The notes under the pieces: model-generated
Database searches by the model: none
Told to the model about the DNA's origin: nothing
What the model saw: only the letters and a program-made list of their open reading frames with translations
Origin: a virus
Lineage: Duplodnaviria; Heunggongvirae; Uroviricota; Caudoviricetes
DNA: 64,000 nucleotides
Strand: one strand, 5' to 3'
IMG/VR virus record: IMGVR_UViG_3300042922_000270
In this document: positions 24,602-64,000 of the stretch, one piece after another
Position numbering within the stretch: the first letter of the stretch is position 1
How the letters are laid out: every line of letters begins with the position of its first letter
Made by a program: the position numbers and the translations under genes

Positions 24602-26508
24602 TGACACCAAACCATGAAGATGAAAGTAATAACGAATTCCAGAAACTAATCAAACATAGTACGTTCGACCTCGATCTGTTCTCTGCTCTTGAGCAGGGCA
24701 TCAAGGGTCAGGAACAAAGAGATCTCAACATCATTGAGTTTGCAAACGAAGTGGTGACAGGATTCGACAAGGGACTATTCTTGTCCCAGAAAGTAATTCT
24801 AAAGTCCATCTACTCAATTCCACTAGATGATACCATCGTGGACGAGAAGTTCGAGATGACTGAAAAGCAGCTCATGGATAGTTGGGTTGCTGACCGTAAG
24901 ACTAACTGGGTCGACCCAGAGACACTGCTGGTCAAAAAGAATCAACAGATAGCTGAGCTTAACTTAAGCCTAGATCCTAAGAAACAGCTAGCACCGCTAG
25001 AAGCATGGCGCTTCCAAGAGTTGATTATCGAAGCAGGAATGAGAAGCTCAAAGACAACCATGGCTGCTCTCATGACCGCTTATGAGTTCTATAGGTTGAT
25101 CAAGACAGACAACCCTCAAGAGTTGTTCGGACTACCTAAGACCTCACTACTGTTCTTCACCGTAATGGCTACCACTGCTGGTCAGGGTGAAAACACGGTA
25201 TACGGTAACGTTAAGTCTATGATTCAGAACTCTAACTTCTTCAAGGAAGAGGAGAAGGCTGGAAGGCTTATCGTTGGTGCCGAATCAATGAAGTACCCTA
25301 GCAAGAATATTATTATCTCCCTAGGTCACTCAAGAGCTGCATCTATTGTAGGTAGATCAGCACCCATTGTGGTATTCGACGAGATCGCCATGTTCGGCCT
25401 AGACGATACTGCTGCCGTTAACGTATCTGAGATCTACGCCCGAGTGGGCCGTTCAGCAGCTACGTTCGGAGACAAAGCTAAGCGCATCACCATTTCATCT
25501 GCCAAGGTGAAGGGCGATTTCATGGAGGTCCTAGTACGTGATAACTGGGACCGCATCGAGCAGGGTACCTTAGTGTTCTCACTGTCCACGTTTGACGTGA
25601 ACCCTATGATGAACATGCAGAACCCCATCATTTCAGGTGACTATCACCGAGACATTGAACAAGCACAGCGCGACTATGAGAACCTACGTCCAGGCTCTAT
25701 CTCAGGCTTCCTGAACCCTACAGTTATTAAGCAGTGCATTTCTCACGAGCCTATGAAGTACTGTCAGTACGAGACTGAGCAAGAAACCGTAACAGTAGAT
25801 GGAGAAGACAGGACTTACATCAACTTAGTGCTTAACGGTATTAAGCGTCCAGACAGCGCTGCAGTCATGTATGCCCACGCTGACCCTGGAGTACGTAAAG
25901 ATAGCTTCGGACTTGTTATAGGACATCCAGAGTACTCTAAAGATGGTGTCGTAACAGTCATCGACTTAGTACTAGAATGGATCCCACAGAAGGCCGGTAA
26001 GGGTATCGTATACGAAGTTAACCTAGACGACGTAGAGTCACGCATCGTAGAGCTGAATAAAGAATTCAGATTCGTACACTTGACCTTTGACCAATGGGAG
26101 TCTCACGGTGCTATCCAGAGACTGTTCAGAGCAGGCATCCCTACATTCAAGCAGCAGTTCGCTAAGAACAATCAGCTACAGATGTACAAGGCTCTCAGGC
26201 AGCGTATGAAGGATGGTCTGGTTAAGATACCTAACCACCCAACCCTAATCGAAGAACTAGAGAATCTAGAGCTTCGTAATGGTTCAAGGGTAGACCACCC
26301 TAAGAACAAAGATAGTCAGGTTGTAGGTCGTGGTAAGATCTCAAAGGACCTTGCTGACGGACTGGCCATGGTCAATTGGATCATCTCCATTAAGGAGAGA
26401 GGCTATGACCGTGACTCAGGATTCGCTAACACCCCTGACCAGTCAGGTAACTTTATTAAGACCATTGGTCGTACTAGAGCTGCTGATCTAGGCCAAGGGT
26501 GGCGCTAA
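24601..26508 (+). CDS. terL: Terminase large subunit (probable start at ATG 24601)
   Basis: EAGMRSSKTT Walker A variant, VVFDEIA Walker B, and a C-terminal nuclease with HADPG..KD, TFDQWES, RVDHP and SKDLADGLA. Confidence 0.88.
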   Translation: MTPNHEDESNNEFQKLIKHSTFDLDLFSALEQGIKGQEQRDLNIIEFANEVVTGFDKGLFLSQKVILKSIYSIPLDDTIVDEKFEMTEKQLMDSWVADRKTNWVDPETLLVKKNQQIAELNLSLDPKKQLAPLEAWRFQELIIEAGMRSSKTTMAALMTAYEFYRLIKTDNPQELFGLPKTSLLFFTVMATTAGQGENTVYGNVKSMIQNSNFFKEEEKAGRLIVGAESMKYPSKNIIISLGHSRAASIVGRSAPIVVFDEIAMFGLDDTAAVNVSEIYARVGRSAATFGDKAKRITISSAKVKGDFMEVLVRDNWDRIEQGTLVFSLSTFDVNPMMNMQNPIISGDYHRDIEQAQRDYENLRPGSISGFLNPTVIKQCISHEPMKYCQYETEQETVTVDGEDRTYINLVLNGIKRPDSAAVMYAHADPGVRKDSFGLVIGHPEYSKDGVVTVIDLVLEWIPQKAGKGIVYEVNLDDVESRIVELNKEFRFVHLTFDQWESHGAIQRLFRAGIPTFKQQFAKNNQLQMYKALRQRMKDGLVKIPNHPTLIEELENLELRNGSRVDHPKNKDSQVVGRGKISKDLADGLAMVNWIISIKERGYDRDSGFANTPDQSGNFIKTIGRTRAADLGQGWR

Positions 26509-26681
26509 CAAGTAAACACCACTTCATAGTCTTTATGGAAGACTGTCATCTTATGAGCTATACCTGGAATCTCACATCGGATAGCTGCTTCCTTAACTTC
26601 TAAAACTTCACCAAGATACCCTGCGGCTTTACTAAACCAATGGGTATCTTTTATTATGACAATATCTCCTGGCTGGATCAT
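26505..26681 (-). CDS. SH3/KOW-like family member 1 (58 aa), absent from the ORF track
   Basis: Hand translation: MIQPGDIVIIKDTHWFSKAAGYLGEVLEVKEAAIRCEIPGIAHKMTVFHKDYEVVFTC. ATGA overlap with the upstream paralog; its stop overlaps the terL stop. Confidence 0.75.
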   Translation of the reverse strand: MIQPGDIVIIKDTHWFSKAAGYLGEVLEVKEAAIRCEIPGIAHKMTVFHKDYEVVFTC

Positions 26682-26884
26682 ACAGTAAACATCACAGTCA
26701 GATCAGCAGGCTTACAGTAGTAGGCATGACCATTATCGAATGTAACACAGACTGTATAGGGATCCCCCGATGCAGGTGTAACCCATTCGTGGACCTCTAC
26801 CCTACCGATACTGCCATCAGGTACGATACAACTATGAGGCTCACACTTACAATTAAAGACTACTAGATCATCTATTCCAAACAT
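26678..26884 (-). CDS. SH3/KOW-like family member 2
   Basis: FGIDDLVVF...GRVE...Y.V...DLTVMFTV. Confidence 0.65.
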   Translation of the reverse strand: MFGIDDLVVFNCKCEPHSCIVPDGSIGRVEVHEWVTPASGDPYTVCVTFDNGHAYYCKPADLTVMFTV

Positions 26885-26899
26885 TACTTATATACCTAC

Positions 26900-26926
26900 A
26901 AAAAGAGAGCCCCCGAAGGGGCTCTC
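26900..26926 (-). terminator. Rho-independent terminator
   Basis: GAGAGCCCC-TTCG-GGGGCTCTC followed by a T run on the - strand, downstream of nrdJ. Confidence 0.85.
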
Positions 26927-26937
26927 ATTTATTATGT

Positions 26938-29214
26938 TTACCTTACAGGACAAGCACCAGTGGCACAAGCTGCATCAAGATCGTCATCAGCAGAGTTAGA
27001 ACCATTCTCGATAGCGTTGAGTAGAGCAATATCGATAGCCTGCTGGCCAGCAATACGTTCGTTGTACTCGTCTTCCTCGATAGCCTCATAAGGGGCTAGG
27101 TCATACTTATCATTAGATTTGTTCTGGAAAGAAACACCAATGTAGTCATCCCAGTTATCGTGTAGCTTCTTGAAGAGAGGGAGCCACTCATCATCACCAA
27201 CCTGAATGGTTGCTGAAGTGTTGTGGTCAGTCCAGTTCTTCTGAGCAGCTAGATACCTATCAAACTGATCAATGGCTGACTCATCAGCAGCCTTACTCTT
27301 AGCAGCGGTCTTCACTACGAACTCCACTACCCAGGTGTCGGCTAGATCAAGAATCATGTCCTTGGTGTAGTCGTCTAGCATATCAAAGTGCTTAGAGGTC
27401 ATGGTGTAGAGATTATCGTTACCGGTTACCTTAAATACGTGATCGTGGAACTCTGCAGGGAGCTTAGTCCATCCCTTTCCAAACTCAGGATACACCTTGT
27501 AGCCTTGCTGCCTTACAGTTCTCGCAAGAGCATCGAAACTGTTAATACGAACGCGACGAATAAAATAAGGGGCAAAAGAACGGTGGAAACCACTGGAACA
27601 AGCAACCAACTGAGAAAGAGTACCAGAGGGCTGAACAGTAGTAACCAGAAGAGGACGGGGAATTCCCATCTCGACAGAGTACGTATCAGCTTCCTCATTA
27701 GCAGCCTCCCTTAGGTCAGCAAGTAGTTGATCAGCGTGGACAGTCTTGATATTACCATCTTCGTCAACGGTGTGGACCATACGACCACCAGCAGTAGCTG
27801 CATCGAATGCATCCTCGATACCAGTTAGATTCACACCTAGTAGGCGGTCACGCTTCTGTACAGCATCCCACTTAGGTAGCTCGATGTCTACGTTAGTAAT
27901 ACGCATACAGTGACGAGTAGCCTGACGCACTAGTCTCTTAAGCATACCTACATCAAGCATGCCCCCAGTAATAGCTGTAGTCATGAAGACAGTAGCTAGG
28001 TTACAGAAGCCACGGTTGGCTAGTAGGATCTCAGCACAAGGGTTCACACCAGCGAAGTTAGGACGACGCTTAGCAGCAGCCTGAGCATTGATGAAACCAG
28101 GCTCGTAGCTATTCTTGATGCTATCAACCAACTTGTTAAGGTAAGAGCGCTTAGGCTTGCCCCAGAACATGATTGAGTTGTTAGACATGTTACGGTGTTG
28201 GGTCCTAGGGTCAGCCCAGAACTCATCCTTAGCATGTAGCATCTGATCATCTTCAGCATCAAACAGAGCAATCTGAGCAGTCCTACGGACGCCGCCAGCT
28301 ACTACATTCTTACCGATAATGTTGCTAATATCTAGTACGTCAATAGGACGTAGGCGAGCCATACCGCCATAGATCTCTTCGTGCTGCTTACGGGTCAAAG
28401 TATCCCAACCAGTAATCCTACGGTTGATATCTAATTCATCTGGACCAATAAAAGGCTCTTCGGGAGCTTCTACAATCACCTGATGAATGAGTTTGAGCAT
28501 ATCTACGTATGACTCAGGACCAGAGGACTTACCACCAAAACGCTTTAGACGCTCACCTTGAGGTCTGATGCTATCTACGTTTACAGTAATCTTAGTAACA
28601 GTTTTCTCAGCTAGAAGCTCAAAGAACTTCTGCACACCCTTAGCCCAGCCCTCACGTGAGTCACCAACATAGATGACCTTAGCGGTAGGGTTAAACATCT
28701 CATCTTGAACGATAGTCTCATCTGCGTAAGACTGATTCCAGTTGTAAGGTTGAACTACTAGTTCGATGTTCTTGTTAAATAGGGGTAGCTTCTTTACATG
28801 CTCCCACTCTGTTGAGAAGCCTACTCCACAGCCTACCATTAGGAGGTAGAACATGTCATGGAAAGACTCAATACTGTCAACAGCAGTAAAGCTACAGTTG
28901 TAGTTAGCGGTAGGAATCATATCAATGATGTCCGTTCCACCAACCCACATAGTACGGCCTGAGGGTAGCTGCCTCAGATAAAACATATCATCAAGAGACT
29001 GGATAGCCTCCTGCATTAAAACTTCTTGTGCTTTAGGGCCTCTGTAAAGGCTGTAACTGTACCTGACACACCTTAGACAGGTCTCTAACCATGTCTCTCG
29101 GCGACCCTCGTTCTCTAGCCATCTTGAGTATGTTCGTAGGTAAACGAACTCACTAAATGCATTGGGGAACGGGTTAATACCAGTGTACTGTTCTAAAGCT
29201 TCTTGACTAAACAT
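26938..29214 (-). CDS. nrdJ: Class II (adenosylcobalamin-dependent) ribonucleotide reductase
   Basis: RTYSR...RETW.E.C.R, LPSGRTMW.GG, NCSF, GGVRRTAQI, GVNPCAEILL (catalytic NPCxE), VQPSGTLS, WTDHNTSAT and a terminal CATGACPVR. Confidence 0.93.
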   Translation of the reverse strand: MFSQEALEQYTGINPFPNAFSEFVYLRTYSRWLENEGRRETWLETCLRCVRYSYSLYRGPKAQEVLMQEAIQSLDDMFYLRQLPSGRTMWVGGTDIIDMIPTANYNCSFTAVDSIESFHDMFYLLMVGCGVGFSTEWEHVKKLPLFNKNIELVVQPYNWNQSYADETIVQDEMFNPTAKVIYVGDSREGWAKGVQKFFELLAEKTVTKITVNVDSIRPQGERLKRFGGKSSGPESYVDMLKLIHQVIVEAPEEPFIGPDELDINRRITGWDTLTRKQHEEIYGGMARLRPIDVLDISNIIGKNVVAGGVRRTAQIALFDAEDDQMLHAKDEFWADPRTQHRNMSNNSIMFWGKPKRSYLNKLVDSIKNSYEPGFINAQAAAKRRPNFAGVNPCAEILLANRGFCNLATVFMTTAITGGMLDVGMLKRLVRQATRHCMRITNVDIELPKWDAVQKRDRLLGVNLTGIEDAFDAATAGGRMVHTVDEDGNIKTVHADQLLADLREAANEEADTYSVEMGIPRPLLVTTVQPSGTLSQLVACSSGFHRSFAPYFIRRVRINSFDALARTVRQQGYKVYPEFGKGWTKLPAEFHDHVFKVTGNDNLYTMTSKHFDMLDDYTKDMILDLADTWVVEFVVKTAAKSKAADESAIDQFDRYLAAQKNWTDHNTSATIQVGDDEWLPLFKKLHDNWDDYIGVSFQNKSNDKYDLAPYEAIEEDEYNERIAGQQAIDIALLNAIENGSNSADDDLDAACATGACPVR

Positions 29215-30424: not shown

Positions 30425-30782
30425 ACGTGATTATTAGTTCTTTGCCAAGCTTCTTGGCGATGTTGATAGACCCTTCGGTCCCTCTAGATAGACCGTCCCA
30501 GTATGCTAGTACTAGATCGGCATCTTTTATAATTAGCTCATTACGGACATGACCGGCAGCCTTACCATACTTCTTCCAATCAGGCAGATGTATCTCTATG
30601 CTCCAGCCTAGATGGTCAGCTGCTTTAGCCCCCATGCTATCTGCACCAGAGGCTCCTCCACTCACAAGTGTAAAGTCTACTGTACCGAAGTAATGTTCCT
30701 GTATGCAGGACAAGTGCCGGAAGATAATAAACTTATCTTTCCAGCTCCTGCTTCCTACTACGGCCACCCTTAGTTGATTCAT
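30408..30782 (-). CDS. SLOG/YspA-like (DUF2493) protein
   Basis: RVAVVGSRSW, LVSGGASGAD, DWKKYGKAAGHVRN and AYWDG.SRGT motifs. Confidence 0.85.
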   Translation of the reverse strand: MNQLRVAVVGSRSWKDKFIIFRHLSCIQEHYFGTVDFTLVSGGASGADSMGAKAADHLGWSIEIHLPDWKKYGKAAGHVRNELIIKDADLVLAYWDGLSRGTEGSINIAKKLGKELIITYEYTQ

Positions 30783-31150
30783 ATTGAAAAGACCATCTCT
30801 ATGTCGTTCTCAGATACGAATCCATGGTTCCACATAACTATGGGAGTCTGAGGATCATGAGAGTTAAAGATCTCGTGCTTACTACAATCGAACACATGGT
30901 GATAGTGTAGGTAGGCTTCGTCCTCTTCACAGAGAGCCCACTCATCTGAGCCATCAACCCAGAAACAAGCACAAGAGATCAGTTCAAATATAAGGCCAGA
31001 AGGCTTATGTAGGACTAGGTCCCCCGGCTGGTAAGTGTGCGCCGACTTATAGTCCTGCGGACATTCTGGTTGCTCTGGGTACATGAACCAATGATCGTCG
31101 GTATCGTAATGAGTATTTAGTTCTTCTACTGTGTAGAGAGGTCTGTGCAC
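30779..31150 (-). CDS. SH3/KOW-like family member 4
   Basis: YQPGDLVLHK...ENDIEMVFSI. Confidence 0.6.
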   Translation of the reverse strand: MHRPLYTVEELNTHYDTDDHWFMYPEQPECPQDYKSAHTYQPGDLVLHKPSGLIFELISCACFWVDGSDEWALCEEDEAYLHYHHVFDCSKHEIFNSHDPQTPIVMWNHGFVSENDIEMVFSI

Positions 31151-33581: not shown

Positions 33582-33587
33582 ACAGAT

Positions 33588-34012: not shown

Positions 34013-34013
34013 T

Positions 34014-35064: not shown

Positions 35065-38000
35065 ATGGCCGAGACGCCACTTAACGGTAACGTACCCAAC
35101 AACTCCCTAGAGAGTAACTATAGAATGGTGTACCCTGCAGACCTTAGTTCTGACAGGATGCTCAAGTATGGGCAGGATACTGTACAGTCCCGTATGGACT
35201 TGGTTAACAGGTCCAACAAGTATGAAGTTACCTCTTACGATGTAAGGTTCGGTAACGAGTTTACTGATCAGGTCTTTACTAACCCTAACTTCACACTATA
35301 CGGATCTAACCGCTCTACTAGTGAGAACAATGCCTATGCTTATGGTAACTATGCTAAGGCTGCTAGATGGGGAGCCGCTAAAGGTACCCTAGTAGAACTA
35401 CCTACAGAGCCCTTCGGCAGGCAGATGCACATTAAGGCAGCCATAGCTGAACTTAAGACCGGAGAAACTGTAGGATTTGTTGGGACAGCTAACGCCACGG
35501 ATAGTGGGCTAGGTGAGGGCAGTAGAGCCCAGTTCAACTATGGAGTAGAGTTCTCAGACAAAGAGCTAGTAAGCCAGCTAAGAACCGTTATGAACCAGAT
35601 TGCTACTGGTGAGTCCCCTACTTCAACTAAGAACTTTATTGTTCAGTCTCCTAAAGATCCTGACGCAGGTTTAGCTGCTGTAGTTGGGTTTATCAATAAT
35701 GAAAAGAATCATAGTGATCTATACATCTCATCTGCTTCACTGACCAATAAAGATGTCATAGGGGCCTTAGTGGCTAAGGCTGGTCGTGGAGAAGATGTAT
35801 ACGTAGGGTTCGGTGGATTAAGCCAAGACGACGATTGGCGTAGTCAGGGTGCTTATGAGATGCTCATGAGTGACCCGGAGACCGCTAAGCACATCCATGC
35901 GGGTATGCGTAGAGGTGGACGTCACGAGAACATGATAGCTATGGGCGACGAAGCCATAGTTGGTTCTATGCGTTTCTCTAAGTCAACCCTAGACGGAGTT
36001 ATGGATAGAGAGACTGGTAAGAGAACACACGGTACAGAGCTTCTACTCTATGCTAAGAACAAGCATCTAGCTAAAGACGTACAGAATAAAATTGCTGAAG
36101 GTTACGACTACAAAGCTACAGAAGCATGGGCTAACAGATTTGAGTCTAAGTATAGCTGGCTAGCTAACCAGTTCATGCCCCTTAACTCGGCCACAGGTAG
36201 AACCAAGTATCTTATTGATCCCACAGTGCCGACCTTTGCTAAAGAGTATGCCATTGAGTCAGGAACTATAGATAGGTTCGAACAGAGTGCATCACTCGGT
36301 ACGTCTATTTATGCTTCACTCTTTAACGAAACATACAACCGTCTTCCAACCGCTGGCGAGATGCCTGAAGAGGTCAAAGCTTTTGATCGACTAGCCGCTA
36401 AGCGCACCTGGGGTCAAGAGTCATTCGGACTAGAGAAGGTTCCTGTAATTGGAGACCTTATAAAGAACTGGGGTGGACTAAGACAGCTAGGTACCAGAGG
36501 CCCCATCGATTCTATGTTGATCCGTGGAGCCATGTGGGCTGATGATCATGTCTTTACCAGCGCACTACGTGAGCGTAATCCTTATACAGGAGAGTATCAG
36601 AAAGAAACTCCTATGCAGGCTCTTGCAAGATTCACCTATGATTCCACTTCAGGTATCGTAGGTAACATCGCTGGGTACTACTGGGTGACTCTACCTGGTC
36701 TACGTGTAATGATTCACGCTAGGTCAGCCATCCAAGATCAACTTAACACTTGGGCAGCTAAAGAGAGAAGCCCTGGTGTTGGTCGTGCTGCTAAGTTCCT
36801 ATTCGGACGTAACTACGATCTAATCGGCCACCGTATTGCGGGTGAAGTAACCGGTACTGTACTCAAGCCAGTAGCCCAGATGCTAGAACCAATTCTAGGG
36901 TTTACCCGAGGCATCAACGAAATTGAACAGATGTACCTTAATGGTGGCGACTGGGATGATGACGTTAAAGCCAGAGGTAGTGCACCTGCTCGTCTACAGA
37001 CAGAGATCAGTCACCCTCAAGGTAAAGAAAGAGCATTCAGGATAGCTGACAGAACGCTAGCTAACCACCCTCTACTTAGAGCTGTATCTGGTATGGGTAT
37101 CGCTAGGTACTTTGCTGAGTATAGCCCCTACATGCTGTACAAGACAGCTATGGATGGTATAGATGTAGTAAAGGCTGGACTAGATGTCTACAGAACAGAA
37201 GGTACTCACTCGACCGAACTACGTAAGGCTATGAGGGATGTAACCACAGGTAAGGTCCTAAACAAGTTCTCATTCGGATTGCTTGGTCAGGATATCTATC
37301 AGCGTGGTTATGAAGTCTGGGACAAGATCTATGGGGAGAACAGCAAAGCTGTAGGTAAGACCTCAGCTAGGGGTCCTGCGGTAAATCGCTTTGGTAGGCC
37401 TACAGGTAACGCTAAAAAGGGATATACCCTCAAGAGCGGTAAGTTAGAGTTCGCTGGAAGAACTATTACAGTCAACACTGCTAACGTACTTCTTGACGAT
37501 AAGATGACCAGAGTACACCAGAGTATCAACAGCGCTACTGCTGACTTTGATACACGCTGGAACAAAGCCCTGGGTATCGATAATCAACTTAAGAAGGCTG
37601 TGCAGAACACTGACGGTATGTGGGCGCGTAAAGCTCTAGCAGTGGCCATTCCTCTTATCTTCTTGAATAAGTGGGCTGGTGATGTTGGTGCTGCCTCTCG
37701 TGTAGACGTAGCTGCACAAGCTGCCTTCAGAGATAGGGTTAATGATCTCAACTCAGTTAAGGGTTTCAGAAGAGACATAGACATTAACTGGACTGGAGGT
37801 ATATCTGATTGGGGTGGACTTGGTATCCTAAACCCAATTACCTTACCTCTACAAGCCATGGCTTATAAGTTCGATCAACTAAAAGCTTCTTGGTATAACT
37901 ACACCACTACATCAAAGGCCCTAGATAAAGTACAGGTAGCTTCTGGTGGTGTATACGGTCAGGCAGCTCTACAGCTAGCTGGAATGGCCATTGCTAACCC

Positions 38001-41000
38001 AGGTAAGGTGTACACCGGCACCGGTAACGACTCGGCTGCTATGAAGCAGAGAGCTGCTCAGTTTGCTGCATCAGGTAATTACAGTCTAGCTAACAGTCTA
38101 CTTCTAGAATCTAGATTAGGTCCTGGAGCTAACACACAAGCCTTCTCAACCAGGAATGGCCTATCACTAGCTCTACAGATTGACGCTGTACCCCTACTCT
38201 TCACCCCTACTGCTGCTGTAAGCTTTATGGGCGACCAGGGTGTATTCTCATTCTCACTACAGGGTCCTGTTATGTTCCCTGTAGGTTTCACCATTGGTTC
38301 ACCCCTAGGACTTAAGAAGCACGACGGAGCACCTGAAGACGCTCACCTAGGATTCCTAAAGGGTATGGGCCTTCTTGAGCACATCTCAGGTTACAACGTA
38401 GACTACGTATCAGGTACCTCAGGTGAGAAGCTATTCAGGCTAGGCATGACTGCTTATGGTGCAGCTTCAGTAGCTAGAGCCCTTACCATGGATTATGAGT
38501 TCAGAGGTAAGACTTACGATAACAAGCTCAAGTTCCTAAAGGAGATGAACACCTATAAGACCCTGAGCAATGCTAATAAAGTAATTAAGTTTGCTTCAGC
38601 CACTGCACCTATGTCACTAGTGAACCTAGGACTAGCAGGGCTCAATCTAGCTGGGGATGCTTGGCACTATGTAAACCTACAAGAGACTGGAGGATTTTCT
38701 AGAGACGCAGTTAACAACATTCTACGTCATAGTGATAAAGACCTAAGAGCCCAAACCATCAAGGAAGAGATCTGGCACGCCAAAGCTGGTAAGGTTGATG
38801 TTAAGATCGGGTCACACTTAGATAGTGTTCTTGAAAGGATAGCCACTGAAGAAAGAAGACTAGGAGTAACTGGACTACCTAACAATCACCAGTTCTATAA
38901 TGATCTGGTACAGGATGAATATAAGCACCTTCTAAAGGGTAAGTATTCAGATAGATTCTGGAATGGGCGTCTATCTCAAGGTATCGCCCTTGCAGGTGGT
39001 GTACTAGCTGGTGCTTACTTCCTAGCGGACCTAGGTCTCTCAATGTATGGCCAAGCATTTGCTAGTGGTCCTGGTGGTTCTGCAGATTGGTACAAGCGTA
39101 TCAATGAAGGCATCATGAGAACCACAGGAGCGCTATCTGAGGGCATAGACAATACTGTAGGTAAGCTACCTGGAGTATTCGGTCTACCTGGACATACTGC
39201 TGCTGCAGCTGTAAATGTTATAGGCGGTCTGTTTGCATCACTATTTGATGTAGGCTACTCTACTGCCATGAGCAAGGACATGATGGCCATAGCTGCCTTC
39301 AAGAAGCGCATTGGAGATAGAGAAGGCTTCGAAGAGTACAGTGGGGATATGAATGGTTACTTCATTCGTATGGGTAACAGATTCAAGGATGCCTTTGCAG
39401 GTACCTATGGTGGCGTGGCTCCTAGATTCCTAGGTACCAGTAACCTCGGTGCTGTGTTCGGGCAGGTAGGTCTAGACTCAACAACATTTAGTAAGGTCTA
39501 CGTACAGGGCGGTATTCTTGGTATCACAGGTACTGTGGCTACTGGAGCTATCAACACCCAAGAGGACACCAACACCTCTAGGATGATGGCTGCTTACATT
39601 GAAAGAGCCTTTGTTGATCCTGGTCGCGACGAACGTACATCTAATCGTAGAAAGTCTGGTGTGATTGGTGAGATGTTCCACAACGAAAGTGGAACTCGTA
39701 GCCAGAGCGGTATTGTACAGATGCAGATCCGTAACCGCACACAGATGACTAACTGGATCCTAAGCACTGACACGGTAGACGTGGCCAGACACTTCTTCAT
39801 GCCTACAGAGCAGTCTAATAAGGGAGCTGGTCTTCTAGATGGACTGAAGGCTATCCTGGGTCCTAACGTAGACAGGAGAGTTAAGCAGTGGGGTACAGGT
39901 ATTGCTGACTTCGGCTATATGTTCGGGTCATCTAAGTCTAAGAGCTTCTTTGAACTATTCGAGTCTACCCGAGACTACGCAACCCAGACAGGCGAACTAG
40001 GAGAACTAGACTTCTTTGCTCACGACTACCAAGGAGAGAGTAACAGAATAGCTTTCGACAACCCTAAGGGTATGTCCCCAGAAGATTTCCATAGAGAAGT
40101 CTTCCAGACCAACCCGGCAGCTAAGGCCGGTCTAGTTATCGGTACCTTAGGTACTATTGGTATTGGTATCCTGGCAGCTAGGAACGTCCTTCGTGGAAAG
40201 GGTGTTGGTCAGATCAAGCCTGATATGATTGGCGATGTATTAGGCGAATCAGGTAGAGCAGCTAGAATCGGTGTAGTGGGAATCAGTCCTACTGGATCAC
40301 ATGCTATGCAATCTACTTCAGCTTTCAAGCCTGGCTCTAAGCCATTCACGGGTGCTCAGGTAGCTGGTAAGTTCTACGATAGATACGCATTTGTTATTGG
40401 TTCAGGAACTAACCAAGGCCTATACTCATTCGGTCTGTTTGGCAATATCGAAGATGAATACGGTAATCCTTACATGCAGAAGGGCCGTGTTATGGGAGCT
40501 GTCAACCACAGAACCTTTAAAGAAACCCTAGTACAAGCTAAGACTCTTGCTGGTGGTAAGGGTGTTAAGGACCTAGCCGTATCCCTAGAACTCATGAGAG
40601 AGACAAAGGGAATCAATATTGCTGGACACCAGTTCCCCAAGCTTGCTGTTGCTGAGAAACTAGAGAAGTTAGTATCACAGATTGATGACCTAGACGATGC
40701 TCTACGTACTCAGCGCAAGATGCTACAGACTAGTCTCCAGGACATTAAGGAGCTAACCACCAAGGGTAAGCTAATGGCTGATGGAACCCGTCAAGCACTA
40801 GACACTACAGAACAGGCTGTTATGGCTCGTCGTAGGGACACCCGCAAGGTAGCGATGAGGGGCACAGATCACTTACTAGCTAACCTAAACTACAAGACAG
40901 ACCTAACAGACTTCGTACAGGACCTACGTGGAGGTCGTGGTGCTGCATGGACTGGAAGTAAGGTTCAGGTAGATGGTCGTAAAGCACTAACCCAAATGAG

Positions 41001-44000
41001 TGATGAGCTAAGTAAGAGACTCACAGCTGCTCAGAAGGGCGGAAGACTACTAGCTACTCAGAGGGTAGATCTAACAAGAGAATTCCTAGAGGAAGCTTAC
41101 CTACATAACGGTAAGGCTATCGATGTCGGCGGACGTAACCTAACTAAGGGTGAAGTCCTAGGTCGTCTATCTGCTGTTGTAGATAGCGTTACTAACGCAG
41201 CCTACACAGAGTCAGAAGTAGTTAAGAACTTCGCTATGAGTGCTCTTAAAGAGGGTAGGATTCAGCAGTACGCTGGCAAGACTATGCTACGCCGTAACGC
41301 CAGAGAGGGTATGCAGATCACTCTAGGTCAACTCTTAAGAGGAGAACTAAAGGACTACATCAACTCTAGCTGGGAGCAGATGCGTGAAGTAGCTATTGAA
41401 AAGAATAGACAGGGATACATCAAGAGTCTAGCCCTAGCTTATGAGAAGACTCATGGAGGTATCGTTGGAGCAGGTAGCACTGATCTACTAACCGAACTAC
41501 ACCAGCACCTAGCCAAGAAGGCTCTAGCTGGTGAGCAGGTTGCTGATGATATGCTACACACTGTGTTTAGCACAATGATGAACGCTAAGGGTGAAGCTGC
41601 AAGACTATCTCCCGCAGGAGAATCAGCATTCCTAGCTGAGCAAGCTCGTCTATACGCCAAGTATGATATGGCTGGAACCGGAGGACTAACCACAAGAGGC
41701 GCTCTAGCCCTAGCTGCAGACACTGCTCTAGGTAAGACTGTCGGTGGTGCCTTCTGGGCCGCAAAGGGTGCAGCAGTACATGGTGTAGCTCTAGCCCCTA
41801 TCATGGGTAACATGGCTTCCATCTACTCACTAGGTCAAGCAGCTAACGATACCAACCCATATAGACTAGAAGATGCTCAGAGAGGCGGAGAAGGTCTCAA
41901 ATACATGGCTAAGGTCCCTATGAACATAGCCTTTACGTCCATGCTCTTAGCTGGCCACAACGCTAATAAAGCTGCTGGTCTAACCTATGGAGCTGCCTTC
42001 AAATCAGCTAAGGTGGCTAGACAGTCATTCAGTACAGCCGTAGCTGGAATGAGATTTACTAGGGCTATGTGGGCAGTTGGAGCCTTAGCTATTGCGGGTA
42101 CCGGCGGTGCGGCTATGCTACCGGTGGTAGGTGGTTTGCTAGCTACAGAACTTGTATTTGCAGGACTACAGTACTTCACGCCTATGGACGAAATGATCGA
42201 CAAGTGGGCTGAAGAGAATAAGGAAGGTATAGCTCACACAGCAAGCTTGCCGGTCATTAGCCAGATGCTTCAAGCTGGTGGTCATATCTTCAGAGCACTA
42301 CAAGCAGCTAATGATTACACCTTTGGTAACCTAGCAGGTTGGTCACGCGATCCCAACAAGGCAGGATGGCAGCAAGCCCTGGGATCAGGTTTCGATATTG
42401 TACATAATATTCTAAGCGTAATCCCTGAATGGCATCCAGCTAACGAAAGCTATAAGCCCTTCAAGGGAGGTCCCAGTCCATCAGTAACTGATAGAGTACT
42501 GGCCAGATCACCAATCTGGTATGGTAGCTATGAGGACTTCTTTGGAGTCCAGCATGGTCGCCAAGAACGCATGATGATGGGTAACCCTACATCACTAATC
42601 TATGACTGGTTCCATGAGAGTTCATTTGGTGGAAGTAGCGTAGCCAGTAACTTCAACTCAGGCAGACATGCAGGAGGAGATACGGCTGATATGATGAGAG
42701 GTCCTTCACTGTTCTCAGAACCTGTAATGACCATCCTCAAGAGCAGAGCAATAGACACTCAGTTCCTAATGGCAGGTCTATCTGATAGATCGCTAGCTTA
42801 TGGTGGCTCCGATAAGGACGTAAGGTCAGTAGACAGCGGTTACTTCAAGGATCCCTACATAGTTGCTAAAGGGTCTATGACGTTCTGGAGTAAAGGCTGG
42901 GGAGAGAACTTCATCGAGGGTGTTCAGAGCAAGCTTGTTGAAGGGTTCTCTGGTTCAAGTGTCAACTATGACATGCTACCAAGTGCTAAGAACCTTAAAC
43001 AGTGGGAGCCTCTAATCCAGAAGGCTGCTAAACAGTTCAACCTGGACGCTAACGTTATGCGCGCTGTTATGATGCAAGAGTCTGGAGGCGACAAGAAGGC
43101 AACCTCATGGGCAGGCGCTGGGGGACTAATGCAGTTCACACCAGAGACATTTGCTATGTTCAAGGCTAAGTACCCTCACCTAATCAAGGGTGATAGGTAT
43201 GATCCTGAATCATCACTAATGGCTTCTGCAGCTTACCTATCAGATCTCAACAGACAGTTCAAGGGAGACATCAAACTCATTGCTGCTGGCTATAATGCTG
43301 GTACAGGTAATGCTCGTAAGGCTCTATTACAAACTAGAGCTGAAGCTGAAGCTGCTGTAATAAGATCTAAGAAAGGTCCTAGACCGATCGAGATGAAGGA
43401 TACCTGGTGGGGCCAGACTCAACCATACGCTAAGATCATCGAGAGTAACTTCAAGAAGCTCCAAGAGGCCAGTGGCGCTCTAGTAACCCCATCACTAGAC
43501 AAGCTAACTATCACAAGTCGTCACGGAGTAAGAAAGCACCCTGTAACTGGTAAGGTATCTAAACACGAGGGCACTGACTTCAATGCTCCTCCTGGAACCC
43601 GCCAGTATGCTGTTACTGCTGGTACGGTACTTCAAGTTGGCTGGAACGATGCTGGAGGTCAGATTGTATCTTATGGCTGGACCGACCCTCAGGGCAAGGA
43701 ACATGTCATTAAGCTTATGCACAACTCTACTGTCCACGTTAAGGCAGGAGATAAGGTTAAGGCAGGAACCCTATTAGCTAGCTCAGGTGCTTCTGGTAAA
43801 GTGAGTGGTGCACACATCCACATCGAACACTGGGTTGATAAGGTCGACCAAGGACTAGAAGAAGATAGTGACATCGCTCGTAGAACAGTCGGTATGGACT
43901 TCGGACCTATCCCAGCTCACAATCATGACCACGATCATAAACCTAAAGCTAAGCCCAAGCCTAAGAAGAAGGTGGTCGCTGCTCAGGAGAAGCCCAAGAC

Positions 44001-44181
44001 TGTCAGAGTAGATAACAAGACTAAGCCTCTACCTAAGAGAACTAACGTCAAGGTATCAGTCAAAGATGGTATGCCACCAACCTTCTCGTTGGGCTGGTTC
44101 GAAGGTCAAGAGTTCGGAGCTGCTATGGACAATAACTACAGGCCGTACTGTGGACCAGTTAGAATCGATAACTGGGGTTAA
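35065..44181 (+). CDS. Giant (3038 aa) virion/tape-measure-like protein with N-terminal PLD-like, C-terminal SLT and M23 domains
   Basis: MHIK....E...GTAN and LYISSASLT..DVIGALVAKAGRGEDV (PLD fold); AVMMQESGG...GAGGLMQF...AAGYNAG (lytic transglycosylase); HEGTDF...Y.H...HIHIE (M23 peptidase). Confidence 0.75.
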   Translation: MAETPLNGNVPNNSLESNYRMVYPADLSSDRMLKYGQDTVQSRMDLVNRSNKYEVTSYDVRFGNEFTDQVFTNPNFTLYGSNRSTSENNAYAYGNYAKAARWGAAKGTLVELPTEPFGRQMHIKAAIAELKTGETVGFVGTANATDSGLGEGSRAQFNYGVEFSDKELVSQLRTVMNQIATGESPTSTKNFIVQSPKDPDAGLAAVVGFINNEKNHSDLYISSASLTNKDVIGALVAKAGRGEDVYVGFGGLSQDDDWRSQGAYEMLMSDPETAKHIHAGMRRGGRHENMIAMGDEAIVGSMRFSKSTLDGVMDRETGKRTHGTELLLYAKNKHLAKDVQNKIAEGYDYKATEAWANRFESKYSWLANQFMPLNSATGRTKYLIDPTVPTFAKEYAIESGTIDRFEQSASLGTSIYASLFNETYNRLPTAGEMPEEVKAFDRLAAKRTWGQESFGLEKVPVIGDLIKNWGGLRQLGTRGPIDSMLIRGAMWADDHVFTSALRERNPYTGEYQKETPMQALARFTYDSTSGIVGNIAGYYWVTLPGLRVMIHARSAIQDQLNTWAAKERSPGVGRAAKFLFGRNYDLIGHRIAGEVTGTVLKPVAQMLEPILGFTRGINEIEQMYLNGGDWDDDVKARGSAPARLQTEISHPQGKERAFRIADRTLANHPLLRAVSGMGIARYFAEYSPYMLYKTAMDGIDVVKAGLDVYRTEGTHSTELRKAMRDVTTGKVLNKFSFGLLGQDIYQRGYEVWDKIYGENSKAVGKTSARGPAVNRFGRPTGNAKKGYTLKSGKLEFAGRTITVNTANVLLDDKMTRVHQSINSATADFDTRWNKALGIDNQLKKAVQNTDGMWARKALAVAIPLIFLNKWAGDVGAASRVDVAAQAAFRDRVNDLNSVKGFRRDIDINWTGGISDWGGLGILNPITLPLQAMAYKFDQLKASWYNYTTTSKALDKVQVASGGVYGQAALQLAGMAIANPGKVYTGTGNDSAAMKQRAAQFAASGNYSLANSLLLESRLGPGANTQAFSTRNGLSLALQIDAVPLLFTPTAAVSFMGDQGVFSFSLQGPVMFPVGFTIGSPLGLKKHDGAPEDAHLGFLKGMGLLEHISGYNVDYVSGTSGEKLFRLGMTAYGAASVARALTMDYEFRGKTYDNKLKFLKEMNTYKTLSNANKVIKFASATAPMSLVNLGLAGLNLAGDAWHYVNLQETGGFSRDAVNNILRHSDKDLRAQTIKEEIWHAKAGKVDVKIGSHLDSVLERIATEERRLGVTGLPNNHQFYNDLVQDEYKHLLKGKYSDRFWNGRLSQGIALAGGVLAGAYFLADLGLSMYGQAFASGPGGSADWYKRINEGIMRTTGALSEGIDNTVGKLPGVFGLPGHTAAAAVNVIGGLFASLFDVGYSTAMSKDMMAIAAFKKRIGDREGFEEYSGDMNGYFIRMGNRFKDAFAGTYGGVAPRFLGTSNLGAVFGQVGLDSTTFSKVYVQGGILGITGTVATGAINTQEDTNTSRMMAAYIERAFVDPGRDERTSNRRKSGVIGEMFHNESGTRSQSGIVQMQIRNRTQMTNWILSTDTVDVARHFFMPTEQSNKGAGLLDGLKAILGPNVDRRVKQWGTGIADFGYMFGSSKSKSFFELFESTRDYATQTGELGELDFFAHDYQGESNRIAFDNPKGMSPEDFHREVFQTNPAAKAGLVIGTLGTIGIGILAARNVLRGKGVGQIKPDMIGDVLGESGRAARIGVVGISPTGSHAMQSTSAFKPGSKPFTGAQVAGKFYDRYAFVIGSGTNQGLYSFGLFGNIEDEYGNPYMQKGRVMGAVNHRTFKETLVQAKTLAGGKGVKDLAVSLELMRETKGINIAGHQFPKLAVAEKLEKLVSQIDDLDDALRTQRKMLQTSLQDIKELTTKGKLMADGTRQALDTTEQAVMARRRDTRKVAMRGTDHLLANLNYKTDLTDFVQDLRGGRGAAWTGSKVQVDGRKALTQMSDELSKRLTAAQKGGRLLATQRVDLTREFLEEAYLHNGKAIDVGGRNLTKGEVLGRLSAVVDSVTNAAYTESEVVKNFAMSALKEGRIQQYAGKTMLRRNAREGMQITLGQLLRGELKDYINSSWEQMREVAIEKNRQGYIKSLALAYEKTHGGIVGAGSTDLLTELHQHLAKKALAGEQVADDMLHTVFSTMMNAKGEAARLSPAGESAFLAEQARLYAKYDMAGTGGLTTRGALALAADTALGKTVGGAFWAAKGAAVHGVALAPIMGNMASIYSLGQAANDTNPYRLEDAQRGGEGLKYMAKVPMNIAFTSMLLAGHNANKAAGLTYGAAFKSAKVARQSFSTAVAGMRFTRAMWAVGALAIAGTGGAAMLPVVGGLLATELVFAGLQYFTPMDEMIDKWAEENKEGIAHTASLPVISQMLQAGGHIFRALQAANDYTFGNLAGWSRDPNKAGWQQALGSGFDIVHNILSVIPEWHPANESYKPFKGGPSPSVTDRVLARSPIWYGSYEDFFGVQHGRQERMMMGNPTSLIYDWFHESSFGGSSVASNFNSGRHAGGDTADMMRGPSLFSEPVMTILKSRAIDTQFLMAGLSDRSLAYGGSDKDVRSVDSGYFKDPYIVAKGSMTFWSKGWGENFIEGVQSKLVEGFSGSSVNYDMLPSAKNLKQWEPLIQKAAKQFNLDANVMRAVMMQESGGDKKATSWAGAGGLMQFTPETFAMFKAKYPHLIKGDRYDPESSLMASAAYLSDLNRQFKGDIKLIAAGYNAGTGNARKALLQTRAEAEAAVIRSKKGPRPIEMKDTWWGQTQPYAKIIESNFKKLQEASGALVTPSLDKLTITSRHGVRKHPVTGKVSKHEGTDFNAPPGTRQYAVTAGTVLQVGWNDAGGQIVSYGWTDPQGKEHVIKLMHNSTVHVKAGDKVKAGTLLASSGASGKVSGAHIHIEHWVDKVDQGLEEDSDIARRTVGMDFGPIPAHNHDHDHKPKAKPKPKKKVVAAQEKPKTVRVDNKTKPLPKRTNVKVSVKDGMPPTFSLGWFEGQEFGAAMDNNYRPYCGPVRIDNWG

Positions 44182-59655: not shown

Positions 59656-59664
59656 GTTAAGCCT

Positions 59665-59690
59665 AAAAAGGGAGAGCCGAAGCTCTCCCT
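59665..59690 (-). terminator. Rho-independent terminator
   Basis: AGGGAGAGC-TTCG-GCTCTCCCT then TTTT on the - strand, after the SSB-like gene. Confidence 0.85.
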
Positions 59691-59705
59691 CAAATTAATC
59701 AAGAT

Positions 59706-60584: not shown

Positions 60585-60595
60585 AAGTTAAAAGT

Positions 60596-60895: not shown

Positions 60896-61139
60896 TGAAC
60901 ATCAACTCTAAATCTTCTTCGATGACATTAGTACGACCATAGTCATCAGCCATGACTACATACCACCAAGTCATAAAGCCCTCAGGAGAGCCCTTGCTAT
61001 CAAACTTATCGTAGTAGTCTATAGTCTCTATTTTAGCAATCTTACCTATTAGATTTGTAGGCACAGGTTCGTAGGGTTCCGGGCACTTAACAATAGTTAC
61101 CAGGTCATTGACCGAATATTTCGGTAGCGGTTGATTCAT
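60888..61139 (-). CDS. SH3/KOW-like family member 8
   Basis: KYSVNDLVTI...GKIAKI...WWYVV...IEEDLELMFSV. Confidence 0.7.
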   Translation of the reverse strand: MNQPLPKYSVNDLVTIVKCPEPYEPVPTNLIGKIAKIETIDYYDKFDSKGSPEGFMTWWYVVMADDYGRTNVIEEDLELMFSV

Positions 61140-61869
61140 GTAGGCATGCCATAGTGAATAGTATCAGGGCCATCTTAGGGGACCATCTCTTAGAGACAAT
61201 ACCTTGTTTGGCCAGGTCTAAGTACTCTAGGTATAGAGGATTCTTGATCATCTTCTCTAAAATAAATAGACCTCCCCAAGCTTTCTTGGGTTGAGTCTTA
61301 TAGGCCAGAATACAGGCTCTAGTAGTTCCGATGGACAGTTTAATATCATGAGCGTCCACCTCATCTCTAATAGGCCAATGACCCATCATATCGTCCAAGG
61401 TAATTGGTTGAGGTAAGTTCATATCTATTAGCTGCTGTACCGGCCAGTATAGACTCTGTAGGTTACGCCCCCTAAGCTCTAGCATCATATCAGCCGCTTT
61501 GGGGTGAAAGGTCAGACCCAGCTTACCAGAAACTAGTAGGCTCCTCATCTGACCTTTTGTCAGGGCCACAGACTTAAAAGTATTCACCTTAGGCTTCTTA
61601 GACCACTTGGTCAGATTAGCTGTCAGGGTCTCTTTATCTAGCTGAGCTATGTGTCTGTCGGCTCTTGGTACCAGAGTACTAAGGTCCCACGTAGCAGGTA
61701 CATCTATAAAGACTATATGTTGAGGTGGCATAAGTGGAGTAGTCCACTGCCTAAAGAAGTCAGCCTCAGACTCAAGGTTGCCCTTTTCAAGTCTCACTAA
61801 CTTAGCATTAGGAATCTTAGCCACATCAGCCATTACCTGCTGACGAGGACCATAGTAAATATTACTCAT
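61105..61869 (-). CDS. holA: DNA polymerase III delta (HolA)-like clamp loader subunit
   Basis: N-terminal IYYG, a degenerate AAA+ layout, L..G..F...AAD.L.EL.G.NL..L...VQQL, and proximity to dnaX. Confidence 0.55.
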   Translation of the reverse strand: MSNIYYGPRQQVMADVAKIPNAKLVRLEKGNLESEADFFRQWTTPLMPPQHIVFIDVPATWDLSTLVPRADRHIAQLDKETLTANLTKWSKKPKVNTFKSVALTKGQMRSLLVSGKLGLTFHPKAADMMLELRGRNLQSLYWPVQQLIDMNLPQPITLDDMMGHWPIRDEVDAHDIKLSIGTTRACILAYKTQPKKAWGGLFILEKMIKNPLYLEYLDLAKQGIVSKRWSPKMALILFTMACLHESTATEIFGQ

Positions 61870-62032
61870 TCAGAAGGCCGAGGTGCCCAGCAATAAATGC
61901 GGTAGCTCCGGCCCCTAGTACAAACAATACAGCTCCAGTAATCACACCGAAGGCTGCACAGAGAACGGTCAGAGCGATAAACACCGCTACACCGATACCA
62001 CCAGTAACAACCATCTTATCTTCTTTTTTCAT
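61862..62032 (-). CDS. Small membrane protein (56 aa), absent from the ORF track
   Basis: MKKEDKMVVTGGIGVAVFIALTVLCAAFGVITGAVLFVLGAGATAFIAGHLGLLNE: a basic N-terminus and about 45 hydrophobic residues. Confidence 0.65.
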   Translation of the reverse strand: MKKEDKMVVTGGIGVAVFIALTVLCAAFGVITGAVLFVLGAGATAFIAGHLGLLNE

Positions 62033-62309
62033 TACTCATTTTACCTTTGAAACTATTCCATGAACCGTCGTCACAAGCTATACAATCTTCTTTATGCGTA
62101 TGACTACCAAACCCTACAGGTATCCAGCCATACCAAATTAGACCTTTAGTCTTAACTACTACTTCTCGGTAACCTTCACACAAAGGACATACTTGGCTAA
62201 TCATACACGCTTGGGCAAACTCACCAAGCTTCTTAAACAACATAAAAGCGGCACCGGTGACCACAGCACCGAGTAGCATTACATTAGTAAAGATTCCGAT
62301 ATCAATCAC
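62016..62309 (-). CDS. Membrane-anchored zinc-ribbon protein
   Basis: N-terminal TM helix followed by CPLC...CIAC. Confidence 0.55.
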   Translation of the reverse strand: MIDIGIFTNVMLLGAVVTGAAFMLFKKLGEFAQACMISQVCPLCEGYREVVVKTKGLIWYGWIPVGFGSHTHKEDCIACDDGSWNSFKGKMSNEKRR

Positions 62310-63357
62310 TGAATATCCCCTTATACATCTGTTCTGGCGTGGGTAGCGTTACATCAACCTTAACTGGTTTATCTTCAGGAAGCATCAATAGAGACCTCCT
62401 GAACATCTCAGGCTTACCTAGTACAGCAGCTTGGGACAGGATCTTCAAACCCTTTGTGTACTGAATATTGTTGGGGCTCTTGATAGACAGTTTACAGAGA
62501 TCCTCTAGTAACTGTTCACCAATGCCAGTGACGTCGTGACCTTTCTTAAGCCAACTAGACCAGATTCTATCAACTCTAGCAAAGTCTCTTTTAAAAGCAC
62601 TATGTAGAATATCAAGTCTCTCAGACTCGTCACACCCACCAATAACCGCATTAAGGGTCTCTTTACTGAAGTCCCCGTCAAGCCTATCAATCATAGACCA
62701 AAGTCTACGTTGAGTTCCCCCAGAGTTCTTAGCTAAGAAGGTTATCTCTTCAAGATAGTCTTCTAGCTCTGGTTCGAATTTTAATACACCCTTGACCTGA
62801 TCCTCGACAGGGATAGGTCCGAAGTCGATCTCATAAGCTCTATCTCTAAGAGCTTCATGAATAGACTTCACGTCGGTGGTCGTACAGATAATAACAGATC
62901 TACTAGATAACTCTTCAAAGATAACTAGTAGAGCACTCTTAGCGGCTCCGCTGAATGCTTGAAACTCATCAATGATGCAGGCTTTATACCTGGACCCCAT
63001 AGCTGGAGCGTACTCCATAGTTGTTTTAAGATCGTTTCTAACCAGGTCTGCTAAGTCACCCATACCACCGTCCATAAACATAAAGTTCATACCAGAACCG
63101 TCGTCTACAGATCTACACCCATCACAGGCATTACAGGGGTTGTGCTCACCATTCTGTCTGACCATACACACTAGACTCTTAGCTACAATCTTAGCTGTAG
63201 TAGTTTTACCTGTGCCGGAGGGCCCTCCAATAATAATTACACTAGGTAGTCTATCTTCAGCTATGCGTTTAGCTAGCTTCGGAACCCATATAGACTGCCC
63301 TAGGACATCCTCAAAGACTTGAGGACGATAAATGTTTGCTTTGGTCTGACTAGACAC
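62302..63357 (-). CDS. dnaX: DNA polymerase III gamma/tau clamp loader
   Basis: IYRPQ.F.DV.GQ, GPSGTGKTT.A...AK.L.C, PCNACDGC zinc module, IIDEFQ, LL...EE. Confidence 0.92.
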   Translation of the reverse strand: MSSQTKANIYRPQVFEDVLGQSIWVPKLAKRIAEDRLPSVIIIGGPSGTGKTTTAKIVAKSLVCMVRQNGEHNPCNACDGCRSVDDGSGMNFMFMDGGMGDLADLVRNDLKTTMEYAPAMGSRYKACIIDEFQAFSGAAKSALLVIFEELSSRSVIICTTTDVKSIHEALRDRAYEIDFGPIPVEDQVKGVLKFEPELEDYLEEITFLAKNSGGTQRRLWSMIDRLDGDFSKETLNAVIGGCDESERLDILHSAFKRDFARVDRIWSSWLKKGHDVTGIGEQLLEDLCKLSIKSPNNIQYTKGLKILSQAAVLGKPEMFRRSLLMLPEDKPVKVDVTLPTPEQMYKGIFSD

Positions 63358-63562
63358 TAAACGCTAACTCCAGCTCTTCCTCAGTAAACCAGTCAGTAAG
63401 AGAATCATCTATATCAACCTTATACCATTGAAGTTTATCAGGCATAGCTAAAGCTATTACTTTACCTAATTTACCTACCCTTTGTCTGGCGTAGGCTTCA
63501 TGAAGACCATTGAGGACTACATTGACAGATTTAATAATTACAATATCACCAACCTGGATCAT
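63350..63562 (-). CDS. SH3/KOW-like family member 9
   Basis: MIQVGDIVIIK...GKLGKV...WYKVD...WFTEEELELAFSV. Confidence 0.72.
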   Translation of the reverse strand: MIQVGDIVIIKSVNVVLNGLHEAYARQRVGKLGKVIALAMPDKLQWYKVDIDDSLTDWFTEEELELAFSV

Positions 63563-63828
63563 AGAGTGAACATGACCTGTAATTCGTCATCCCAGAAGGT
63601 CTCCCGATCAGAGGTACCGTCCAGAGTGACCTTGTACCAGTGATACTTGTTCTCGTCCATACCTGAATAGGTAATGGTTCCAGTCTTGTTATAGTACTTA
63701 CCAGGTTTAGTCACCGAGACAATGTCGTTGACATTTAGTGGGGGCTTAGGGGGTAGCAGTCTCGTAGAGATAGCCTGAGGGGCTAGAAAGTACACAGCTC
63801 GCTTTAGATAATACTTAAACTTATACAC
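63559..63828 (-). CDS. SH3/KOW-like family member 10
   Basis: LNVNDIVSV..PGKYYNKTGTI...WYKVT...FWDDELQVMFTL. Confidence 0.72.
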   Translation of the reverse strand: MYKFKYYLKRAVYFLAPQAISTRLLPPKPPLNVNDIVSVTKPGKYYNKTGTITYSGMDENKYHWYKVTLDGTSDRETFWDDELQVMFTL

Positions 63829-64000
63829 TGAACATTAATTCCAATTCTTCTTCATAGAACCAGTCACCACCAGTTACACGACCAAACCTATCTCTAGCTA
63901 GGGGATTAGTATCTAGCTTGTAGTTAAACGAACCGTTCGGTTGAAGGGACACCCTAACAATCGAGAATAGTCCATTAACATACCTACGTAGGTTCCTATC
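63821..64000 (-). CDS. SH3/KOW-like family member 11, truncated at the window edge and absent from the ORF track
   Basis: Hand translation: ...DRNLRRYVNGLFSIVRVSLQPNGSFNYKLDTNPLARDRFGRVTGGDWFYEEELELMFSV-stop (TAA at 63821-63823). Confidence 0.72.
   Translation of the reverse strand, partial: DRNLRRYVNGLFSIVRVSLQPNGSFNYKLDTNPLARDRFGRVTGGDWFYEEELELMFSV

Follow-up and report, generated by a model that had tools for sequence, protein, structure and literature searches.

In SH3-like barrels the fifth strand (β5) runs antiparallel to the first (β1). The cyanobacterial proteins PsaE (photosystem I subunit IV) and PetP (a cytochrome b6f subunit) are barrels of this kind; each comprises five strands in about 65–75 residues, with an N-terminal G-D-x-V strand, a 3-10 turn, and a last strand, E-L-E-L-V, at or near the C-terminus. 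The REP/SH3_15 domain of Mind bomb (MIB) combines the barrel with both of these framework motifs, and the KOW domains of NusG and Spt5 are SH3-like barrels with G-D-x-V that often stand at the C-terminus of the protein. Multiplication of one small domain inside a single large phage genome has been described as well; the approximately 35 zinc-ribbon copies in Bacillus phage G were called unprecedented in a review of jumbo phages (PMC7824862). The subject of the present analysis is a window of 64,000 nucleotides, corresponding to bases 80481–144480 of the 200,185-bp virus record IMGVR_UViG_3300042922_000270 (Caudoviricetes), which is rated complete. It carries eleven small genes whose products share a C-terminal ending of the type E-L-E-L-V-F-[ST]-x. 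These products are stand-alone SH3-like mini-barrels of the PsaE/PetP/KOW/MIB-REP type, and they belong to a family that has 73 members in this one genome.

A preliminary description of the window had listed eleven minus-strand open reading frames (ORFs) with such endings and with an N-terminal [VIPD]-[GND]-D-[IL]-V motif. It had also proposed that these represent an expanded family, i.e. homologous SH3/KOW-like mini-proteins whose central parts vary widely. Translation reproduces the endings and the N-terminal motif in full, and the family exists as proposed, its size having been understated at "at least 11". To define it, ORFs with a matching ending were first gathered from all six frames of the genome, and a hidden Markov model (HMM) was made from these paralogs. 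The HMM converges on 73 members, all of them on the minus strand. Together they represent about one quarter of the approximately 300 non-overlapping ORFs of the genome; their median length is 78 residues, and their genes are grouped at 0–30 kb and 100–200 kb of the genome, with none in the plus-strand structural block.

In the window itself, the HMM detects the eleven listed ORFs and no others. Ten of them are recovered at E ≤ 2e-8, which bears out the predicted link between the members; the ORF at 30779–31150 is only marginal (E 0.029), and is counted as a divergent member because its AlphaFold2 model has the strand order of the family. The ending [FY][ST]x-stop occurs in 70/73 family ORFs versus 21/1165 other ORFs, so that the shared ending cannot be ascribed to chance. 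Two other metagenomic phage contigs carry further members, one of them 14 (within 14 kb) and the other 13 (within 16 kb), and the motif is strictly terminal in all of these. Compared with the zinc ribbons of Bacillus phage G, the family is about twice as numerous (73 versus approximately 35 copies) and has a different fold (PMC7824862).

Structures were predicted with AlphaFold2 for two window members, using a 64-row paralog alignment (A1) for the product of 63350–63562 and another family alignment (A2) for that of 30779–31150. The first model has a predicted local distance difference test score (pLDDT) of 94.5 and a predicted template modelling score of 0.81. It comprises strands at residues 7–10, 32–39, 46–52 and 55–60, with a helical loop between the first two of these, followed by a 3-10 turn at 61–63 and β5 at 64–68 (LELAF); the mean pLDDT over the last ten residues is 96. 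This is the architecture of an SH3-like small barrel: five strands in SH3 order, a 3-10 turn before β5, and adjacent N- and C-terminal strands. The model of 30779–31150 shows the same strand order, with β5 again ending at F, and has pLDDT values of approximately 90 for the framework and 91 for the final block. A co-fold of two copies of the 70-residue reference protein (alignment A1) scored 0.00, which is evidence neither for nor against a homodimer. Structure matches obtained with VIA-align (residues 1–67 of 70) include PetP (Z 9.7, root-mean-square deviation 2.0, 63/64 residues), MIB1 REP (Z 8.8), Spt5 KOW (Z 8.8), PsaE (Z 8.7), and Thermotoga maritima NusG (Z 8.2). In BFVD, numerous small, uncharacterised proteins of phages match, one of them named PsaE-like; the ESM Atlas concurs, with viral hypothetical clusters and PetP.

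The relation to this class of barrels is also visible at the level of sequence. Searched against PDB sequences, the family profile matches thiocyanate hydrolase alpha (E 2e-4) and PsaE (E 0.005), and the C-terminal ...NNFAENELELV of PsaE aligns column by column with ...eeelElv of the family. Among 1.8 billion representative proteins, 780 are matched. The best of these matches are long metagenomic proteins with 3–8 tandem KFKVGD...ELELV units, each followed by a short polar linker (E down to 8.5e-21); they give weak and mixed matches to the SH3_15, DUF1918, NHase_beta_C, KOW, and PsaE models. The tandem proteins (P0001–P0150) constitute a large uncatalogued class in their own right, 135–3157 residues in length, with short acidic linkers and with no names or taxa on record.

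These relatives allow the ending to be divided into two parts. From the PsaE alignment and the internal position in the tandem repeats it follows that the acidic turn and E-L-E-L-V are an inherited last strand; E-L-E-L-V is the canonical β5 of PsaE/PetP/KOW/MIB-type SH3-like barrels and stems from the wider superfamily. The following residues have a different history. Across 119 repeat units, taken from 73 tandem proteins, E, K, S, T, D, and P predominate in the three positions that follow ...ELELV, and [FY][ST] is found in 0/119, whereas all single-domain profile matches listed, including about 19 proteins from other samples, end in F/Y-T/S-x (in one case with one extra residue). F-[ST]-x-COOH is therefore a derived feature, specific to the stand-alone phage clade. 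The idea of eight fixed residues that are always strictly terminal thus holds for F-[ST]-x; the other five residues, E-L-E-L-V, are an inherited barrel strand that is internal in the tandem-repeat homologs, where the chain extends beyond it.

Each of the described relatives also differs from the phage proteins in its setting. PsaE and PetP are single-copy cellular subunits of photosynthetic complexes, and PsaE has no F-[ST]-x, whether its chain stops or runs on; the phage family has 73 copies, and lies below every Pfam threshold. In Mind bomb and in the tandem proteins the barrel is an internal repeat with polar linkers after it, whereas the phage proteins have a single domain and the chain stops one residue past F-[ST]. 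Unlike the KOW domains of NusG and Spt5, the phage proteins have no KOW match in Pfam, are mostly acidic (median isoelectric point, pI, 4.8), and have no tie to the transcription or translation machinery.

Neither Pfam nor PHROGs gives a significant match for any family member. For SH3_15 (PF18346, cut-off 24 bits) no window member is found at E ≤ 1, and only multi-repeat relatives reach this model, by summed scores. The gathering cut-offs of KOW (PF00467), PetP (PF11061), and DUF3104 (PF11302) are not reached either; the sole match is to DUF3104, for 26505–26681, with 15.8 bits against a required 27. Among GenBank phages, there is no match by megablast with the replication block or by tblastn with a family member. 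A word-indexed protein search with the family alignment returned only proteins of the same genome, and an exact DNA pattern for E-L-E-L-V-F-T-[IV]-stop has three matches in IMG/VR, none of which is a family member. The phage helicase likewise has no relative in IMG/VR and at most 29% identity to helicases of Bacillus phages. The fold and the E-L-E-L-V strand were already known, while the family itself is uncatalogued.

Conservation was quantified as information content, computed from 114 sequences that are typically about 30% identical to their nearest relative. The invariant D of G-D-L-V has 4.3 bits, followed by F (3.9), T/S (3.7), V (3.7), G (3.6), L (3.6), and E(−5) (3.3); loop columns have 0.3–0.6 bits, and alignments A1 and A3 contain no conserved stretch of 7–10 columns. 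Position −2 is F in 100 and Y in 10 of 110 sequences, with no other residue, and position −1 is T in 92 and S in 16 of 108. The last residue is the least conserved of the final six positions. Among the 73 members it is V (19), I (19), K (14), L (8), T (7), Q (3), M (1), C (1), or R (1); in other words, it is K, T, Q, R, or C, and not V, I, L, or M, in 26/73 (36%). A hydrophobic i/i+2 stripe of L, L, F, and [IVL] is visible in the residue counts of the tail. Between 3 and 96 residues precede G-D, and exactly one residue follows [FY][ST] in 70/73 members. The codons are not conserved: F is encoded by TTT and TTC, T by all four ACN codons, and S by codons of both the AGY (AGT/AGC) and the TCN block (TCA in 30779–31150), and the codons for L and V vary widely. 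This synonymous variation indicates that selection acts on the protein, as had been proposed at the outset. Across the 114 sequences, covariation between tail positions and the rest of the protein is weak (z 7.7 for columns 66 and 3) and does not suffice to fix contacts.

The preferred reading of these data, to which a probability of about 0.6 is assigned, is that G-D-L-V and E-L-E-L-V-F-T together form a structural clasp carrying the hypervariable loops. The 3-10 turn ([ED][ED][EDQ]) would run into β5, L-E-L-V-F, with an inward stripe consisting of L(−6), L(−4), and F(−2) and an outward stripe consisting of E(−5), V/M(−3), and T/S(−1); the mostly aliphatic last residue would lie on the same strand face as the inward stripe. 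F-[ST]-x would then be a clade-specific lengthening of β5 by three residues. In both AlphaFold2 models F closes the β5 ladder and the tail is predicted to be ordered. Because F and the two core leucines share one strand face, F is in phase with the core. Since β5 pairs with β1, F-[ST]-x faces the start of G-D-L-V, the other highly conserved block; the aromatic ring may cover the conserved glycine, and the hydroxyl may be bonded to the invariant aspartate. The two chain ends would in this way provide a rigid framework that holds the loops.

Several points weigh against such a clasp. The burial proposed for F, and the contacts that T/S and the terminal carboxylate would make, are deduced from strand phase and pairing rather than from model coordinates. 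Relatives adopt the fold without F-[ST]-x, which is absent from PsaE and from all 119 repeat units. A purely structural strand should also allow L, I, or M at −2 and V or I at −1; neither is seen in 110 sequences. In addition, a single residue follows T/S in 70/73 members despite N-terminal overhangs of 3–96 residues, which suggests that the place where the chain stops is itself constrained.

Three other explanations for the ending need to be weighed. In the preliminary description, all eight residues were taken as a free docking or degradation tag, possibly of the type recognised by PDZ domains or tail-specific proteases. This is not supported for E-L-E-L-V, which is a standard β5, and F is also placed in the strand by the two models, the last block having pLDDT values of 91–96. 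In a ligand of PDZ domains or tail-specific proteases, the hydrophobic C-terminal residue would be the most constrained; here it is the position that admits polar and charged residues in more than a third of the members, and the phage genome encodes neither a PDZ_2 domain nor an S41 peptidase (Peptidase_S41) as a reader. A narrower version is restricted to F-[ST]-x-COOH, perhaps with the adjoining N-terminal G-D face, as an exposed hot spot of all paralogs that is read by one phage or host partner (an adaptor, a protease, or an assembly hub) while the loops bring different cargo. It is consistent with the clade specificity of the triplet, which is dispensable for the fold in relatives, where the matching positions are exposed linker residues; with the exclusive use of an aromatic at −2 and a hydroxyl at −1; with the single residue after the motif in 70/73 members and in 27/27 on the other contigs, N-terminal extensions being tolerated; and with retention of the motif at about 30% pairwise identity. 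Against it stand the ordered tail with F in the β-ladder, the variable last residue, the absence of the tail from all other phage proteins, and the lack of a PDZ_2 or S41 reader encoded by the phage. This version is doubtful but conceivable; a docking tag is unsupported, and the structural reading is more likely. There is a known counterpart for the general logic: poxvirus ankyrin/PRANC proteins have a variable body and a shared C-terminal docking module, PRANC being an independent folded F-box-like domain with Skp1 as partner. Many paralogs with one common C-terminal element would be the theme in both cases; in the phage family, though, this element belongs to the barrel itself and has no known partner. 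A far-reaching form of the idea, in which about 70 loop-diversified mini-binders plug via F-[ST]-x-COOH into one hub (an adaptor, a protease, a clamp, or an enzyme modifying the penultimate hydroxyl), and so constitute a modular adaptor library that brings host targets to a single effector machine, is unlikely. The clamp-loader protein encoded at 62302–63357 itself ends in ...GIFSD, i.e. F-S-x-COOH; this is probably coincidence, as such endings occur in about 2% of other ORFs.

Sliding clamps bring in another possible reader. The hexapeptide β-clamp-binding motif is of the type Q-L-x-L-x-L (QL[SD]LF / QLxLxL), and known clamp-binding motifs are flexible peptides. Most members have [EDQ]-L-x-L-x-F at −7 to −2, which as a pattern match could mimic this hexapeptide and dock the mini-proteins on the phage DnaN-like clamp. 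Such a clamp is encoded, with family genes on both its sides, and family genes in the window adjoin a clamp-loader gene, near which another ORF resembles a δ subunit (a language-model lead only). The motif residues, however, are a folded β5 with inward leucines in both models, homologous to β5 of PsaE; Q is present at −7 in only 8/73 members, and the tail is absent from the ligase, the helicases, and other likely clamp clients or replication proteins of the phage. Clamp binding as the reason for the ending is thus very improbable. Equally little weight can be given to gene packing, according to which the ending is kept for what its nucleotides do for the next gene (as a start codon in an overlap, as a coupling signal, or by dual coding) rather than for the protein. 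Indeed, 34/73 family genes end in NNA-TGA with an overlapping ATG of the next gene, versus 7/114 other minus-strand ORFs; the final codon ends in A in 50/73; and in a tandem array at genome positions 25022–26745 the L-V codons provide the TTG start of the next gene. Packing accounts at most for the choice of the last codon and for the nucleotide identity of the array. The motif is intact at every junction type and also in 26505–26681, which has no following gene, and this, together with the synonymous variation at F, T/S, L, and V described above, means that packing cannot account for F and T/S; as the main cause it is largely refuted.

The array itself (L003:6022–7745, outside the window) comprises 8–9 family genes, each next start (TTG or ATG) lying 17–20 nucleotides inside the previous gene, so that L-V-F-T-[IV]-stop and the (M)SSQFK of the next gene share nucleotides in two frames. 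Frameshift fusion in the array was considered and rejected, as every gene begins at a start codon of its own and no canonical slippery site lies in the frame required. Two adjoining proteins of 175–176 residues, encoded at genome positions 161547–162601 (L007:17547–18601), have a normal C-terminal family barrel behind a degenerate N-terminal copy; in the degenerate copies, a linker comes after the internal strand, which lacks a clean F-[ST].

With regard to function, the family most likely serves as a set of small protein binders, acidic for the most part, whose specificity would reside in the loops. This is the best-supported reading, as judged from acidity (pI < 7 in 60/73 members), divergence, the loops, and gene context. 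The median identity to the best paralog is 34%, and clear orthologs in other genomes are lacking. Family genes are interleaved, and often translationally coupled, with genes of replication and nucleotide metabolism (for ribonucleotide reductase, ligase, helicases, primase, and the clamp loader); they may be co-translated with replication and early-middle genes. A general nucleic-acid-binding role (KOW- or Sm-like) was rejected in view of the same predominance of acidic members.

The window members and the components of the possible clamp system are listed in Table 1.

Table 1. Family members in the window and clamp-related genes of the phage. Positions are window coordinates unless marked as genome coordinates.
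Feature	Position	Strand	Remarks
Family member, 58 residues	26505–26681	−	Ends YEVVFTC; HMM E 1e-10; last gene of minus-strand run, no overlapping downstream gene
Family member, 68 residues	26678–26884	−	Ends LTVMFTV; HMM E 3e-15; ATGA overlap with next member
Family member, 193 residues	29843–30424	−	Ends LELAFTV; HMM E 2e-8; barrel at about 94–193, after long low-complexity N-terminal extension
Divergent (marginal) member, 123 residues	30779–31150	−	Ends IEMVFSI (S = TCA); HMM E 0.029; long loop insertions; ATGA overlap with next gene
Family member, 80 residues	51617–51859	−	Ends LEILFTI; HMM E 4e-14; ATGA overlap with downstream DNA-polymerase-like ORF
Family member, 92 residues	59129–59407	−	Ends LEIYFTI; HMM E 1e-12; ATGA overlap with downstream SNF2/DEAD helicase gene
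Family member, 83 residues	59404–59655	−	Ends LEVMFTK; HMM E 2e-12; ATGA overlap with next member
Family member, 83 residues	60888–61139	−	Ends LELMFSV (S = AGT); HMM E 2e-16
Family member, 70 residues	63350–63562	−	Ends LELAFSV; HMM E 2e-17; modelled reference; directly upstream of clamp-loader gene
Family member, 89 residues by first GTG	63559–63828	−	Ends LQVMFTL; HMM E 3e-12; ATGA overlap with next member
Family member, cut by window end	63821–64000	−	Ends LELMFSV; HMM E 2e-16; full gene 89 residues, to window coordinate 64090, begins ...KYNVGDIV
Possible DNA polymerase III δ-like ORF, 254 residues	61105–61869	−	ESM Atlas features and structure, template modelling (TM) score up to 0.61; no Pfam or PHROG match; lead only
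Clamp-loader subunit	62302–63357	−	Beside family genes
DnaN-like sliding clamp, 383 residues	Genome 150191–151342 (L018:649–1800)	−	PF00712 N-domain 31.6 bits, other two domains not detected; between family genes

The DnaN-like protein, the clamp loader, and the possible δ-like ORF suggest that the phage encodes a clamp system of bacterial type. Several of the downstream partners in the ATGA overlaps of family genes are core replication genes (the helicase and the polymerase-like ORF). A 3038-residue ORF on the plus strand (window 35065–44181) breaks into the minus-strand block from the opposite strand. The contig with 13 family members carries, at its end, a ribosomal protein L7/L12-like gene (PF00542; L012:1–75). 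The only sequencing run containing the phage sequence is a soil metagenome (DNA), which is possibly the source sample; no RNA run is listed. The flanks of the phage contig consist of phage DNA alone and give no clue to the host.

The significance of the family lies, to begin with, in its abundance: about one in four genes of this 200-kb phage encodes one and the same uncatalogued mini-domain. Once the inherited strand is set apart from the strictly terminal, clade-specific F-[T/S]-x, the question of what the ending is for is reduced to three residues. Should the terminal triplet be grasped by one shared partner, this would represent a new adaptor logic in phage–host conflict. If, as favoured here, the triplet belongs to a framework for variable loops, the family would be a natural library of small host-directed binders, and a possible scaffold for binder engineering.

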